From a virus (lineage: Duplodnaviria; Heunggongvirae; Uroviricota; Caudoviricetes), in IMG/VR virus record IMGVR_UViG_2541047944_000005, positions 1 to 39,595 of that record: a stretch of DNA of 39,595 nucleotides. One strand, 5' to 3'. Shown here in pieces: positions 3,458 to 11,293 of this stretch (the stretch's first letter is position 1; every line of letters starts with the position of its first letter). Below the pieces are notes generated by a model. That model ran no database searches. It worked only from the letters and a program-made list of their open reading frames with translations, and had not been told where the DNA came from. Made by a program: the position numbers and the translations under genes.

Positions 3458-3703
3458 GTGATGGGCAAAGAATATAAAACTCTCATTAACAAAGCACTTG
3501 AGCGTTTTTATTTTCGCTTAAGCGCATCAGGCGCTCATGCTGAACGTGCAGCCCGTGACTCATTGACCAGGGCAATCCGGAGTTTGTATGACGTCGCTTT
3601 TTACGCTGATGATCTGGATGCACTTAACGAACTTTCCGAGCTGATCTGTGCCGCAGAATGCGGGGAACATATTGAACCGTATAAGCTGGGGAATATTGCA
3701 TGA
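3458..3703 (+). CDS. hypothetical early protein (81 aa)
   Basis: ORF tightly packed after the previous gene; stop overlaps next ATG (ATGA). Confidence 0.4.
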   Translation: MMGKEYKTLINKALERFYFRLSASGAHAERAARDSLTRAIRSLYDVAFYADDLDALNELSELICAAECGEHIEPYKLGNIA

Positions 3704-3813
3704 GTATATTTATCTCATGGCTTGTTCTGATTATTTCGGTGGCCTGCGCCATTGGGATTATGCGAATTATTCATTCAGTAAAAAAGATTGAACGCTTTTT
3801 CACTGGCGAATAA
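3700..3813 (+). CDS. possible small hydrophobic membrane peptide (37 aa)
   Basis: Hand-translated MSIFISWLVLIISVACAIGIMRIIHSVKKIERFFTGE; start overlaps previous stop; below the ORF-track size cutoff. Confidence 0.3.
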   Translation: MSIFISWLVLIISVACAIGIMRIIHSVKKIERFFTGE

Positions 3814-3899: not shown

Positions 3900-4103
3900 A
3901 TGGCAATTAAGCGATTTACCGTCGTTCGTTTCACTTCCAGAGGACGTGAATACGAAGTTGACGAACGGCTGATTAAAACGCTCGACCGTCACCGTTCGCA
4001 ACCTGACGCGCATCACATTTATCTCACTGACGACACTTACTTCTGCGCCACCAACGTGGTGCAGGTGAATCTTATCAGACAGGTACAGGAGTCACGCAGA
4101 TGA
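3900..4103 (+). CDS. hypothetical protein (67 aa)
   Basis: Strong RBS AAGGAGG 5 nt upstream of ATG 3900. Confidence 0.5.
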   Translation: MAIKRFTVVRFTSRGREYEVDERLIKTLDRHRSQPDAHHIYLTDDTYFCATNVVQVNLIRQVQESRR

Positions 4104-4345
4104 CCATTCTGGACTACATCGCCGCCAATCCGGGTTGTAGCGGTGGAGAAATCGCCGCAGCACTGAATACCCCAACCACAGCCATTAATGCGGAGTTACG
4201 CCGACTCTGGCGCAGCGGTTCAGTCATAAGAAAAGAGCGCAAAACAGGCGGTCGCTTTTCTTACCAGATAAACCCGATGCCGTTCGGGTGCGGCAATCCA
4301 CTTACCAACACGTTTAACCAGCTACTGAAGGAAGCCAGAGCATGA
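4100..4345 (+). CDS. small DNA-binding protein, probable winged-helix
   Basis: 81 aa; segment GCSGGEIAAALNTPTTAINAELRRLWRSGSVIRKER resembles a winged-HTH recognition region; start overlaps upstream stop. Confidence 0.45.
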   Translation: MTILDYIAANPGCSGGEIAAALNTPTTAINAELRRLWRSGSVIRKERKTGGRFSYQINPMPFGCGNPLTNTFNQLLKEARA

Positions 4346-4641
4346 GCGCCATCAACCACCAGGAATTACGCGAACTGGCGACTGACCTGCAACGAATGGC
4401 AACGCCTCAAAAATTACTGGCGTTTCGCGCAATGCTCTCGCCGTCTGCTGTGCTGGCACTGCTGGATGAGCTGGAGCACGCCAGAACCATGGCTCCAGCC
4501 ATTCGCCTGACGCTCCATCATGAAATCGCTGATTTCTGCGCACCACTGGGTTCGCCTGGTGAACCAGAAACGCCGGAAGCAATACAGCAAGAGCTGCTGC
4601 AACGCATTGACAAGGTTTTCGATTTTTTCCTTAACCAGTAA
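4342..4641 (+). CDS. hypothetical early protein (99 aa)
   Basis: ORF translationally coupled to the preceding gene; no motif recognised. Confidence 0.45.
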   Translation: MSAINHQELRELATDLQRMATPQKLLAFRAMLSPSAVLALLDELEHARTMAPAIRLTLHHEIADFCAPLGSPGEPETPEAIQQELLQRIDKVFDFFLNQ

Positions 4642-4651
4642 GGGCCGCAAC

Positions 4652-4855
4652 ATGAACAACAAGACATGGTTTCGCGCATACATGTGGGCGCTGGTATGCG
4701 TCCTCATTTCTCTCATCCTGTATGCAGGACTACTCCCCCGAATGATTTCATCTGACAGTTCCTTCCTGGTATTGCTGGGCATTTTCATTGCCCTGCTGTA
4801 CCCGGCAGGCGTTGTTCGCTTTTTCAGTAAATACATTGAGGAAATCAAACCATGA
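4652..4855 (+). CDS. small two-helix membrane protein (67 aa), partner of the SPFH gene
   Basis: MNNKTWFRAYMWALVCVLISLILYAGLL...LVLLGIFIALLYPAGVV has two hydrophobic segments; stop overlaps the ATG of the SPFH gene. Confidence 0.5.
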   Translation: MNNKTWFRAYMWALVCVLISLILYAGLLPRMISSDSSFLVLLGIFIALLYPAGVVRFFSKYIEEIKP

Positions 4856-5676
4856 AAAAACTCTTTCCGGTTATCCCGCTTTTTGCCGCCATCTTCCTGG
4901 TTGGTTGCGATCGCGTTGAGCCAGGTAATGTGGGCATCAAAGTCAACAAACTGGGCGACGACAAAGGCGTCGGCGAAGTGGTTGGCGTTGGCCGCTACTG
5001 GACTGGCTGGAATACCGAGGTTTACATCTTCCCGACCTTCAAACAAATGAAGACCTACGATGAGCCGTTCAGCTTCCAGATGAGTGACGGCACAACCATC
5101 GGCTATCACATCGGTGTGGCCTACAAGGTTGATCCATCCAAAGTTACTACAGTGTTTCAGACCTACCGCAAAGGCGTGGATGACATTACCGACACTGACC
5201 TGCGCCAGAAGATCGCCGATGCACTCAACCGACTGGCCAGCAAAATGACCACCGACAAATTTATCGACGGAGGGAAATCTGAACTACTGGATGCAGCTCT
5301 TAAAGACATTCAGGAGGAAATGACACCCATCGGTATTCAGGTAATGAGCCTCTCATATGTGGGTAAGCCGGAGTACCCGTCAACCGTTATCGACAGCATT
5401 AATGCCAAAGTCACGGCAAACCAGAAAACCCTGCAACGCGAACAGGAAGTCAAGCAACGTGAAGCAGAAGCCAACATGTTGCGCGCAGAAGCTGCCGGAC
5501 AGGCTGATGCCATTCGCACAAAAGCCCAGGCTGAAGCCGACGCCATTCGTTTACGCGGTGAAGCTCTGCGCCAGAATCCCGGCGTTATGGAGCTGGAAGC
5601 AATCAACAAATGGAACGGCACGCTGCCGCAATACATGACCAGCAACACCGCTGTTCCGTTTGTTCCGGTGAAGTAA
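4852..5676 (+). CDS. SPFH/band-7 (stomatin-prohibitin-flotillin-HflK/C) family lipoprotein
   Basis: 274 aa; signal peptide with lipobox LVGC near the N-terminus; SPFH-like core followed by Ala/Glu/Arg-rich coiled-coil tail (QREQEVKQREAEANMLRAEAAGQADAIR...). Confidence 0.7.
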   Translation: MKKLFPVIPLFAAIFLVGCDRVEPGNVGIKVNKLGDDKGVGEVVGVGRYWTGWNTEVYIFPTFKQMKTYDEPFSFQMSDGTTIGYHIGVAYKVDPSKVTTVFQTYRKGVDDITDTDLRQKIADALNRLASKMTTDKFIDGGKSELLDAALKDIQEEMTPIGIQVMSLSYVGKPEYPSTVIDSINAKVTANQKTLQREQEVKQREAEANMLRAEAAGQADAIRTKAQAEADAIRLRGEALRQNPGVMELEAINKWNGTLPQYMTSNTAVPFVPVK

Positions 5677-5682
5677 TTAAAC

Positions 5683-5728
5683 CCGGCCAGTGAAAATCGC
5701 TGGCCGGAGCAGTATCAGGATTTTTTTA
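5683..5728 (+). terminator. hairpin plus downstream T-run after the SPFH gene (weak intrinsic terminator)
   Basis: ccggccag...ctggccgg stem 5683-5707; T7 run at 5722-5728 is not immediately adjacent, so the call is weak. Confidence 0.35.
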
Positions 5729-6044
5729 GTATGCCGTTCTCACAAAAAAACCACTTGCCATGCCGCAATCAGTCAGGTTACATTTCCGCTGCACCTCACA
5801 AAACGAGTGCCGGGATTGGAACCCCGCTGACTATGCACGCGCACAACCGCGCCAGCGGTTTTTTTGTGCGTACCGTATCGCCACGTCTTTTTCGCGTCAG
5901 AATTATGGTGGGGCGTATGGGGCCGACTTCGGTCGGGCCGGATTCGTGCGTAGCCGGTAGTTCCAACCCTGTACGTCTCACCACCCCGAGCTTGGAACCT
6001 CTGGATGGTGAGTTTTTAAAACTTACTACGTACGAGGCCACCCC

Positions 6045-6275
6045 ATGGCAAACCGCAAACAGCACCGCGCTATCGCGGAGCGTCGTCACATCCAGACTGA
6101 AATCAACCGCAGACTTTTCCGCGCATTCCGCGTCGCGCATATCATGCACATCAATATGCTGCATGAACGCAGTCACGCACTATCGAACAGCTATTCCGCC
6201 TCTGTTTTCAGCTATCTGGCAGATGATCTGCGCGAGCTTCAAAAGCTCATCCAGCAGCAAAACAAACTCCATTAA
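6045..6275 (+). CDS. possible small basic protein (76 aa)
   Basis: ORF with GAGG 7 nt upstream of ATG; Arg/His-rich N-terminus; may instead be non-coding. Confidence 0.25.
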   Translation: MANRKQHRAIAERRHIQTEINRRLFRAFRVAHIMHINMLHERSHALSNSYSASVFSYLADDLRELQKLIQQQNKLH

Positions 6276-6347
6276 TTCCTGTTCCGGGCCTTTCCTGCAC
6301 CTTGCGGCGGGAGGCCTTCGCACATCTGTAACAAGAGGATTGCCGCA

Positions 6348-9618: not shown

Positions 9619-10578
9619 ATGAAAATTTGTATCGACGACGGCTCCACCAACATCAAGCTGGCATGGACTGAGAACGGCGAACGCCGCAACGCCATCAGCC
9701 CGAACAGCTTCAAGTCGGAATGGTCTGCGCCGTTCGGTGGCACGCAGCCCGCGAACTACATGCTTGATGGCGTGCGCTATGGTTTTGATCCGGTCAGCGA
9801 TCGCTTTGTCCAGACGACCGACACGCAATACCAGTACAGCGATGTGAATGTAATCGCCATTCACCACGCGCTGGTCAAATCAGGCATCACACCACAGGAA
9901 GTGGATGTGGTTGTCACCCTGCCACTGAGCGAATATTTCGACACAAACGCACAGCCGGACATGGCCAACATCAACCGCAAAAAAGCGAACGTCATGCGCC
10001 CGGTGGAGTACCAGAACGGCGAAGCATTCACTATCCGTAACGTACGGGTTATGCCTGAATCCATTCCGGCTGGCTTTAAGGCACTGGCTGACATGAGTCC
10101 GTTTGAATCCCTGCTGATTGTGGATTTAGGCGGAACCACACTGGATGTGGCAAAGGTTCAGGGGCAACTGGCAGGTATCAGCCAGGTGTTTTGCGATCCA
10201 CACGTAGGCGTTTCCCTGATGGCCGATGCCGTACTGTCGGTGATGGCCACTAACGGTATGCGTACCAGTCACCACATCGCCAATACCATTATCGAACATC
10301 GCCATGATGAAGCCTGGTTGCGCCAGCACATCCACAATGACGCGCATTACGCCAGCCTGATGGCGGTTATTCGTGAAAAGGAAGAAACACTGAAACAACG
10401 CGTGATCCGCGCGCTGGCGGGTTTTTCGGGTTACGGGCGGGTGATGGTTGTCGGTGGCGGGGCGGAGATTGTGGCACCCGCTATCCGCGAAGCCTGCGGA
10501 GTTAATGCGACTTTCATCGCGGACGGGGTGCCACAGTTTGCTCTGGTTAATGGGCTGTACGCAATGGACAAGGAGTAA
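9619..10578 (+). CDS. parM: ParM/StbA-like actin-family segregation ATPase
   Basis: 319 aa; N-terminus MKICIDDGSTNIKLAW...SPNSF...YSDVNVIAIHHAL...MPESIPAG...LLIVDLGGTTLDV...MVVGGGAEI matches plasmid R1 ParM motif by motif as recalled; AAGGA RBS. Confidence 0.85.
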   Translation: MKICIDDGSTNIKLAWTENGERRNAISPNSFKSEWSAPFGGTQPANYMLDGVRYGFDPVSDRFVQTTDTQYQYSDVNVIAIHHALVKSGITPQEVDVVVTLPLSEYFDTNAQPDMANINRKKANVMRPVEYQNGEAFTIRNVRVMPESIPAGFKALADMSPFESLLIVDLGGTTLDVAKVQGQLAGISQVFCDPHVGVSLMADAVLSVMATNGMRTSHHIANTIIEHRHDEAWLRQHIHNDAHYASLMAVIREKEETLKQRVIRALAGFSGYGRVMVVGGGAEIVAPAIREACGVNATFIADGVPQFALVNGLYAMDKE

Positions 10579-10957: not shown

Positions 10958-11293
10958 ATGCAACACATTGACAGAGAAAAAGCGCAGCGACTGATTGAGC
11001 GAATGGAAGCGCTGGCGAAAGAAGAAAATGTCAACATCCAAAAAATAGCTGAATGTGGCCGGATAGTTCTTCGTCGTGAAAAAGACATCAAACAACTGAT
11101 GTCTGGCGAAACCAGCAAAACATGGACTTCAGGCGAGAAGACGATTTATTGCAGCTTCTGCAATAAATCCCAGTACGAAGTCACAAAGCTGATTGCCGGA
11201 CCGTCTGTTTACATCTGCAATGAGTGCGTTGATTTGTGCAATGAATTTATCAGGAGAGAAGTGACAGACCATGAAGAAAAAACGCATGAATGA
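10958..11293 (+). CDS. small protein with C-terminal ClpX-type C4 zinc-binding domain
   Basis: 111 aa; residues [38 protein letters not shown] are near-identical to the E. coli ClpX N-terminal zinc-binding domain ([37 protein letters not shown]) as recalled; no AAA+ module follows. Confidence 0.7.

Follow-up and report, generated by a model that had tools for sequence, protein, structure and literature searches.

The prophage in IMG/VR record IMGVR_UViG_2541047944_000005, a P88-like member of the P2 family (Peduoviridae, Xuanwuvirus) of 39,595 nucleotides (nt; hereafter the window), carries in its early region an optional cassette of two overlapping genes. The second encodes an SPFH/band-7 lipoprotein and the first a small two-helix membrane protein, which accompanies the SPFH gene in most of the phage lineages sampled and is naturally fused to it in some of them. 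Both genes are real and under purifying selection, which on the mature SPFH protein is extreme. We tentatively propose that such pairs represent a distinct phage-borne class of SPFH proteins, in which a homo-oligomeric, lipid-anchored, periplasmic cage with a minimal two-helix partner replacing NfeD would trap or insulate a conserved machine of the host inner membrane, FtsH for example, early in infection by diverse lytic and temperate phages, as a means of general host takeover rather than as a lysogeny regulator or a defence gene. In this full form, the proposal is possible rather than probable.

The SPFH lipoprotein

A sequence-only reading of the window had described an SPFH/band-7 lipoprotein translationally coupled to a two-helix membrane protein at positions 4652-5676, and both open reading frames (ORFs) lie exactly there, joined by an ATGA overlap that can be read from the sequence (Table 1). 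A Shine-Dalgarno-like AAGGG stands 7 nt 5' of the small-gene start, and GAGGAA 8 nt 5' of the ATG of the SPFH gene. In other phage contexts, the two genes meet in the same 4-nt overlap, in a 3-nt gap or in a 17-nt overlap. As sequences they are already known, through PF01145, PHROG 200, PHROG 1130 and the near-identical annotated genes of phage P88, whose gp11 'membrane protein' and gp12 'lipoprotein' have the same neighbours and share 94% nt identity with the window over the pair and its edges. Phage P88 gp11/gp12, phiP27 L05, SSU5_061/062 and phiE125 gp44/gp43 are the same genes (PHROG 1130 plus PHROG 200) without substantive difference.

The larger product matches Pfam Band_7 (PF01145; E 1.7e-30, 106.8 bits against a cut-off of 23.6 bits) over residues 21-207 and profile positions 2-176 of 176, and the predicted fold agrees, which upholds the SPFH assignment made earlier. 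It also matches PHROG 200 'lipoprotein' (E 7e-112). AlphaFold2 (AF2) modelled the monomer, with a predicted local distance difference test score (pLDDT) of 70.8, as an SPFH domain at residues ~19-175 (strands at 19-93, helices) followed by a 65-residue helix (177-241) and a short helix (244-252). In the C-terminal tail (KWNG..LP....PF..VK), residues W254, N255, G256, P259, P269, F270 and K274 are invariant in 26 sequences. Compared with the PDB using Foldseek, the model matched, at probability 1.00 and in this order, HflC/HflK (7vhq), erlin, prohibitin, stomatin, QmcA-YbbJ, flotillin and vault, and the best matches are full-length cage-forming SPFH proteins. Solved SPFH cages have walls built of the long helix and a cap formed by the C-termini.

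Sequence searches also rank HflK and HflC first, albeit weakly (PDB, E 6e-4), with NCBIfam scores of 24.3 bits for HflC (TIGR01932, cut-off 134.4) and 23.5 bits for HflK (TIGR01933, cut-off 159.4). The likeness to E. coli HflK/HflC lies in the SPFH domain, the long wall helix, the C-terminal tail and an inner-membrane anchor with the SPFH part in the periplasm, a topology that is predicted here for the phage protein. Prohibitin and erlin are likewise among the best full-length structural matches, but they are eukaryotic, helix-anchored and hetero-oligomeric, at 14-18% identity. HflK/C, prohibitin and erlin share a position on the non-cytoplasmic side, where they corral degradation machinery or membrane proteases. 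The cassette holds one SPFH gene and no second was seen elsewhere in the annotated parts of the window, i.e., no HflK/HflC-like pair.

The N-terminus of the SPFH protein (MKKLFPVIPLFAAIFLVGC-D) consists of MKK, a 12-residue hydrophobic stretch (LFPVIPLFAAIF) and the lipobox LVGC, which fits the pattern [LVI][ASTVI][GAS]C expected of the lipoprotein first described; the codon of Cys19 occupies 4906-4908. Cys19 and Asp20 are kept in at least 90% of the 26 homologues of the enterobacterial clade alignment. Among 145 family representatives, at least 112 retain a lipobox, and some members of the family have an uncleaved N-terminal helix in its place. Asp at position +2 is the E. coli inner-membrane retention signal, by which lipoproteins avoid the Lol system, and judging by this motif Asp20 most likely keeps the lipoprotein at the inner membrane. 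Across the family, the lipobox with Asp +2, the uncleaved N-terminal helices or fusion behind the two-helix partner would each place the SPFH part on the outer face of the inner membrane. One allele, the SSU5/Cyrano type of ~225 contigs (P0107 and P0112), has a tyrosine for the lipobox cysteine (IIGYD instead of LTGCD); its product would be unlipidated, with the signal peptide kept as an anchor, or else secreted.

The two-helix partner and its natural fusions

The small protein has two hydrophobic segments (~9-28 and ~38-57) separated by a short polar turn, with basic residues at both ends, and matches PHROG 1130 'membrane protein' (E 1e-21), a group categorised as 'moron, auxiliary metabolic gene and host takeover'. 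Only Pro29 and Ser33, both in the turn (LLPRMISSDSS), are invariant columns in 20 diverse homologues. Based on the positive-inside rule and the fused homologues, an N-in topology is predicted, in which the segments would form the transmembrane helices TM1 and TM2, the turn would be periplasmic, with Pro29 and Ser33 at the outer end of TM1, and the basic C-terminus cytoplasmic. The sequence-only reading had also proposed a search for NfeD-like domains. The 20 diverse small proteins gave no significant match to any Pfam family and none to NfeD, the small-protein profile found no relative in the PDB, and we rejected NfeD identity on these negatives. The protein ends 10 residues past TM2, and no NfeD oligonucleotide/oligosaccharide-binding (OB) fold domain (PF01957) was found. 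A search with the single sequence retrieved close relatives only, and a profile search of a large protein database retrieved 29 unnamed proteins only.

Linkage of the two genes is conserved. In each of the six contexts that were examined first, translation of the DNA preceding the SPFH gene revealed a two-helix ORF of 60-75 amino acids immediately before it; these contexts include phiP27, RCS47 and Pastis, where the ORF is unannotated. A hidden Markov model (HMM) built from nine small proteins matched directly upstream at 99 of 102 loci. Of the remaining three, two have an IS1 insertion between the genes. IS1 copies sit exactly between the small-protein and SPFH genes in L088 (2233-3001; Shigella flexneri) and L089 (E. 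coli). With three further clades sampled, 291 usable loci formed 23 clusters at 80% SPFH identity, and the partner was recognised in 17 clusters (14 HMM-positive throughout, three, including phiE125 gp44, by the same motif seen by eye). It lies directly upstream in nearly all clades down to ~45% SPFH identity. Genes annotated upstream of the SPFH gene in SSU5, an N4-like coliphage, a jumbo Enterobacter phage and a Pseudomonas phage match PHROG 1130, and so does one Vequintavirinae gene that sits one ORF further upstream. Overall, the pair is present in P2-like, lambdoid/Shiga toxin (Stx), HK97-like, P1-like, SSU5-like, N4-like, Vequintavirinae, jumbo, Pseudomonas and Burkholderia phages.

In 21 of the 145 full-length family representatives, the SPFH protein is extended at its N-terminus by 45 residues or more. 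Most extensions consist of two helices with a P-x3-S motif and a basic linker, followed by a lipoprotein-like signal peptide and then the SPFH domain. The small-protein HMM recognises twelve of them (E <0.01), most others resemble the small protein by eye and one or two (e.g., P0263) are dissimilar. That the two genes are fused in nature speaks for joint action of their products. The fusions also set the predicted topology, with the linker in the cytoplasm and the SPFH part outside. The lipobox is kept in the fused forms, so that cleavage by signal peptidase II might restore two separate products. The partnership, the fusions and the extreme constraint described below appear to be undescribed in the literature that we searched. 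In phage RCS47 (P1-like allele; L003, ~2400-2470), the 17-nt overlap between the small ORF and the SPFH start extends over an A7 run. P0001 (eight member sequences) joins the two in frame through that run; it is a variant produced by slippage or sequencing and only resembles the fusions found in distant lineages.

Evolutionary constraint

The mature SPFH protein of the window is 96.5% identical to that of phiP27 and 98% identical to that of RCS47; the corresponding values for the partner are 25% and 51%, and the signal peptides are 33-44% identical. DNA similarity to other phage-type alleles starts just after the lipobox. On these comparisons, we place a recombination boundary at the lipobox, with the small gene and the signal peptide apparently freely exchanged or divergent. 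For the coding part of the mature SPFH protein (4906-5673), comparison with RCS47 gave a synonymous divergence (dS) of ~1.0, a nonsynonymous divergence (dN) of 0.008 and a dN/dS ratio of 0.008; other comparisons gave ratios of 0.02-0.09. Against RCS47 (L003), L002 and L001, the ratio was 0.008-0.05, even with synonymous sites close to saturation. Given a dS of ~1 with a dN of 0.008, the similarity of the SPFH proteins is not merely a matter of recent transfer. At a dN/dS of ~0.01, few accessory genes are likely to be as constrained as that of the SPFH protein. The dN/dS of the small gene (~0.2-0.45 within the P88 type) indicates that it too is real, under looser constraint. These comparisons have the window as their common reference and few substitutions behind them. 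The constraint on the SPFH protein would fit many self-contacts or a conserved host target, not an arms race.

Distribution and the lysogeny hypothesis

Using the part encoding the mature protein as a megablast query, we found 87-92% identity in phiP27, Stx2 phages, P1-like phage-plasmids and the HK97-like phage Fraca, and ~75-78% in an N4-like Erwinia phage and SSU5-like elements. Of 5,426 complete E. coli genomes, 740 have the SPFH gene, with plasmids accounting for almost half of its places. Homologues were detected by tblastn in 384 of 50,697 phage records; these carriers include strictly lytic groups (the N4-like Schitoviridae, Vequintavirinae, Bruynoghevirus, Ounavirinae and phiCbK-like phages) as well as crAss-like, Lak and jumbo phages. 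An exhaustive profile-free search returned 2,873 cluster representatives at E <1e-3, 218 of them at E <1e-30. In lytic and temperate phages, the SPFH gene is always among early or accessory genes.

Catalogued homologues are labelled only 'membrane protein', 'lipoprotein' or 'SPFH domain protein', or wrongly 'serine protease', with no function or partnership described. Many public records (e.g., those of phiP27, Stx2 phages, RCS47 and Pastis) bear the labels 'serine protease' or 'transposase fusion protein'. Neither label has any support, as Pfam and NCBIfam return only SPFH-type families and the sole other match is a marginal one to a PHROG 'protease' (E 5e-4) over the coiled-coil region. The 'serine protease' label was presumably inherited from the NfeD/ClpP-class neighbours of archaeal stomatins.

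The sequence-only reading had pointed to the role of FtsH in the lysogeny decision of lambda. Applied to the pair, this would mean that an HflK/C mimic tunes FtsH and so stabilises or destabilises a CII-like regulator. HflK and HflC are indeed among the closest relatives in sequence and structure and face the same side of the membrane, and many carriers are temperate. We know of no CII/FtsH step in P2-family phages, which decide via C and Cox, and some 86% of the prophages with the present backbone do without the pair (see below). As a general function, the lambda-style rationale fails on the presence of the pair in strictly lytic groups such as N4-like phages, Vequintavirinae and a jumbo phage. 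It is weakened as well by the position of the pair in a lytic operon and by scores of only ~24 bits against the HflC and HflK cut-offs of 134 and 159. A dedicated role in the lysogeny decision is unlikely, and we give this explanation little credence. The HflK/C-lysogeny idea has been raised in print and repeated in some papers on phage SPFH genes, one of which points out, as we do, that the genes also occur in strictly lytic groups that have no lysogeny decision to make.

An optional cassette in the early lytic operon

Minus-strand genes of the window encode the integrase and a helix-turn-helix repressor. The plus strand carries Cox, then the pair and then gpA (from 6720), and its ORFs between 3458 and 5676 are tightly stacked. 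The pair lies in this Cox-to-gpA operon, the early lytic operon under repressor control, in accordance with the position first assigned to it. A simple scan of the sequence just before the pair detected no promoter-like site.

The cassette is not part of the P2 core, as the sequence-only reading had also maintained. P88 is the only member of the Peduoviridae among the phage matches at nt level, and the site is empty in most E. coli prophages that share its flanks, so that the pair is optional and no conserved structural component of related phages. We queried the 5,426 genomes with the flanks only (4100-4641 joined to 5690-6290; at least 80% coverage required) and found both flanks in 1,052. 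Among the flank places listed, most span ~1,110-1,131 bp and are empty, and a few span ~2,195 bp and contain an 'SPFH domain-containing protein'. The full-length pair is present in 145 E. coli genomes. Combining these two separate searches, approximately one in seven prophages of this backbone carries the pair and ~86% lack the cassette. Empty sites are clean, with the Ead/Ea22-like gene followed almost directly by the isrK/C4 region, and the cassette begins at the start of the small gene. Isogenic backgrounds that naturally have or lack the cassette exist in E. coli.

The 3' hairpin (fold energy -21.8 kcal/mol, z-score -4.9) belongs to the cassette, being absent from the empty site. A terminator scan did not call it, and the 13 nt between stem and T-run set it apart from a canonical intrinsic terminator. 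It could serve as a weak terminator or as an element of RNA stability or 3'-end formation. An optional cassette that ends with its own hairpin loosely resembles a moron; a simple scan saw no promoter-like site upstream, and the hairpin lacks an adjacent T-run. Such a resemblance could point to a lysogenic-conversion lipoprotein, made in the lysogen and altering the host surface or the interaction of the host with an animal. The frequency of the gene in pathogenic E. coli, Stx phages and plasmids would suit this explanation, as would the report on PM0222, a prophage-encoded HflK/C-like protein of Pasteurella multocida that is found on outer-membrane vesicles, acts as a Toll-like receptor (TLR) 1/2 agonist and contributes to virulence, though kinship of PM0222 to the present family is only a possibility. 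The small gene, however, starts at the cassette edge within the early operon with no promoter-like site upstream, Asp +2 argues against targeting to the outer membrane or vesicles, and lytic phages are among the carriers. We see only a slim chance that conversion is the function of the pair.

A membrane protein next to a lipoprotein with a long helix also bears a superficial likeness to Rz/Rz1, and among the 20 small-protein homologues there are two with very weak similarity to holin families (E 0.044), so that a spanin-like role, or one as holin/antiholin regulator, could be imagined. The pair is nevertheless an early-operon feature, and the window has a complete late lysis cassette at ~21.6-23.1 kb (holin, endolysin and two Rz-like spanins), which argues that the pair is not the lysis machinery of the phage. 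Moreover, an o-spanin has to reside in the outer membrane, which Asp +2 would prevent the lipoprotein from reaching, and the SPFH fold is unrelated to spanins. On the separate lysis cassette and Asp +2 we discarded a spanin or holin role, which is scarcely credible.

Proposed action at the inner membrane

In the reading that we prefer, the two products would assemble on the inner membrane into an SPFH ring or cage that faces the periplasm and, during early lytic growth, acts on a conserved host component; we regard this proposition as evenly balanced. Upon transcription of the early lytic operon, both products would be made together and go to the inner membrane. The two helices of the 67-aa protein would insert as a hairpin, leaving both termini cytoplasmic and the Pro/Ser turn at the periplasmic surface. 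The SPFH protein would be exported and lipid-modified at Cys19, and Asp +2 would hold it at the inner membrane on the periplasmic side, where its copies would most likely oligomerise through the long helix and the conserved C-terminal tail into a ring or cage. Such a cage would enclose a patch of membrane containing the small partner, and the assembly would probably act on a conserved inner-membrane component of the host in a way that favours productive infection. FtsH, to which the HflK/C-type relatives and the matching topology point, is the leading candidate client, albeit a doubtful one.

A tightly linked SPFH gene and small membrane-protein gene, with fused forms, are also seen in SPFH-NfeD operons (QmcA-YbbJ, YqiK-YqiJ, FloT-YuaF and Pyrococcus PH1511-PH1510), an operon rule that is stated in a reference cited by the PM0222 paper. 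QmcA-YbbJ is a structural match of the phage protein (Foldseek rank 31). The SPFH-NfeD operons differ from the phage pair, whose partner is a two-helix hairpin only, without the NfeD OB-fold. QmcA and YqiK face the cytoplasm, and the phage SPFH protein should face the periplasm.

Several points weigh against the proposed cage and its client. HflK/C is a helix-anchored hetero-oligomer, whereas the phage protein has a lipid anchor, is the product of a single gene and is optional; its identity to HflK/C is 15-20%, with scores far under the family cut-offs. The retention signal is not general, the +2 residue outside the enterobacterial clade being mostly Ser, Thr or Gly. Asp20 is here followed by Arg, and retention in E. 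coli is weaker with certain residues at +3. The AF2 model of the SPFH protein is of a monomer only and of modest confidence, with a C-terminal tail below 50 pLDDT, and that of the fused form P0001 (pLDDT 64.8, predicted template modelling score 0.40) shows three N-terminal helices only and does not place the docking of the partner. No partner was recognisable in five to six of the most distant clusters, nor in the most distant clades (PaP4, phiEa104, phiCbK). The promoter scan is crude, and expression in the lysogen could have escaped it. Finally, the literature searched holds no functional study of the PHROG 200/1130 family, and papers from 2006 to 2026 that record phage SPFH genes call their role unclear.

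Envelope location and early-gene position would equally suit superinfection exclusion or envelope shielding, where the pair would form a barrier on the periplasmic face to the entry of a second genome or to outside damage during replication. The sequence-only reading had offered exclusion, along with protease modulation, as speculation. Lipoprotein exclusion factors are known, and T4 Imm/Sp and the TP-J34 lipoprotein Ltp act as barriers; like T5 Llp and Cor, they are phage-encoded, non-essential and envelope-located, often early, and several of these proteins are lipoproteins. Lytic-phage carriers would fit an Imm/Sp-type role, and the category under which PHROG 1130 is filed is compatible with it. 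In the N4-like phage vB_EcoP_3HA13 (L103, 580-894), the gene just upstream encodes Pfam PF17420 'Superinfection exclusion gene product 17', and a Vi01-like genome table places the SPFH protein beside a 'superinfection exclusion protein'. A GP17-like neighbour was nevertheless seen at only one of 306 fetched loci, and a conserved link to GP17-type exclusion genes was rejected on that count. None of T4 Imm/Sp, T5 Llp, Cor and TP-J34 Ltp has the SPFH fold or a conserved two-helix partner, and to our knowledge no exclusion protein has that fold. PADLOC 2.0 returned no model for the SPFH protein and, for the small protein, only a match at E 0.021; with no defence-model match for the pair, we rejected a known anti-phage defence system. 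The dN/dS of 0.01-0.09 carries no sign of an arms race, and genes in a repressed lytic operon would not protect lysogens. Exclusion is, in our view, rather unlikely.

Whichever function applies, the unit to study is the two genes together, with a partner that is not NfeD and is naturally fused in some lineages. If the proposed cage does capture FtsH or another inner-membrane machine, the pair would offer both a new mechanism of host takeover and a simple homo-oligomeric model of client selection by SPFH proteins. If it were only a membrane stabiliser or an exclusion factor, it would be an ordinary accessory gene.

Table 1. Coordinates of the gene pair and associated features in the window.
Feature	Position	Strand	Description	Basis
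Small-protein gene	4652..4855	+	ATG 4652 to TGA 4855, 67 aa, MNNKTWFRAYMWALVCVLISLILYAGLLPRMISSDSSFLVLLGIFIALLYPAGVVRFFSKYIEEIKP	ORF and sequence, PHROG 1130
SPFH/band-7 lipoprotein gene	4852..5676	+	ATG 4852 to TAA 5676, 274 aa	Pfam, PHROG 200, AF2 model
Coupling junction	4838..4855	+	GAGGAA 4838-4843; SPFH ATG 4852 overlaps small-gene TGA 4853-4855 as ATGA (4852-4855)	
Lipoprotein signal	4852..4911	+	Residues 1-18 predicted signal peptide, lipobox L16-V17-G18-C19, Asp20 at +2	Sequence
Optional cassette	~4655..5740	+	~1.08 kb	Alignment against empty site L306 and junction alignments
Hairpin	5683..5727	+	11-bp GC-rich stem 5683-5707, 6 nt past stop; T7 run 5721-5727, 13 nt from stem	

Other features of the early region

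Just 3' of the cassette, Rfam matches the isrK Hfq-binding small RNA (sRNA) at 5791-5865 (59.4 bits) and the C4 antisense RNA at 5901-5988 (79.8 bits). The same region (5755-6275) contains a promoter-like site (5755-5784), a terminator-like site (5845-5867) and a 76-aa 'derepression protein' ORF (6045-6275). It looks like a P1/P7 immI-like, sRNA-controlled antirepressor module within a P2-family early region. Directly after gpA, the window encodes a ParM-type actin-like partition protein (9619-10578), and at 10958-11293 a ClpX-type zinc-finger protein; both are unusual cargo for a P2-like prophage but are present in P88 too. A 37-aa hydrophobic ORF at 3700-3813 (MSIFISWLVLIISVACAIGIMRIIHSVKKIERFFTGE) in the early operon overlaps the stop of the previous gene; it has no family match and corresponds by position to P88 gp07 'membrane protein'.

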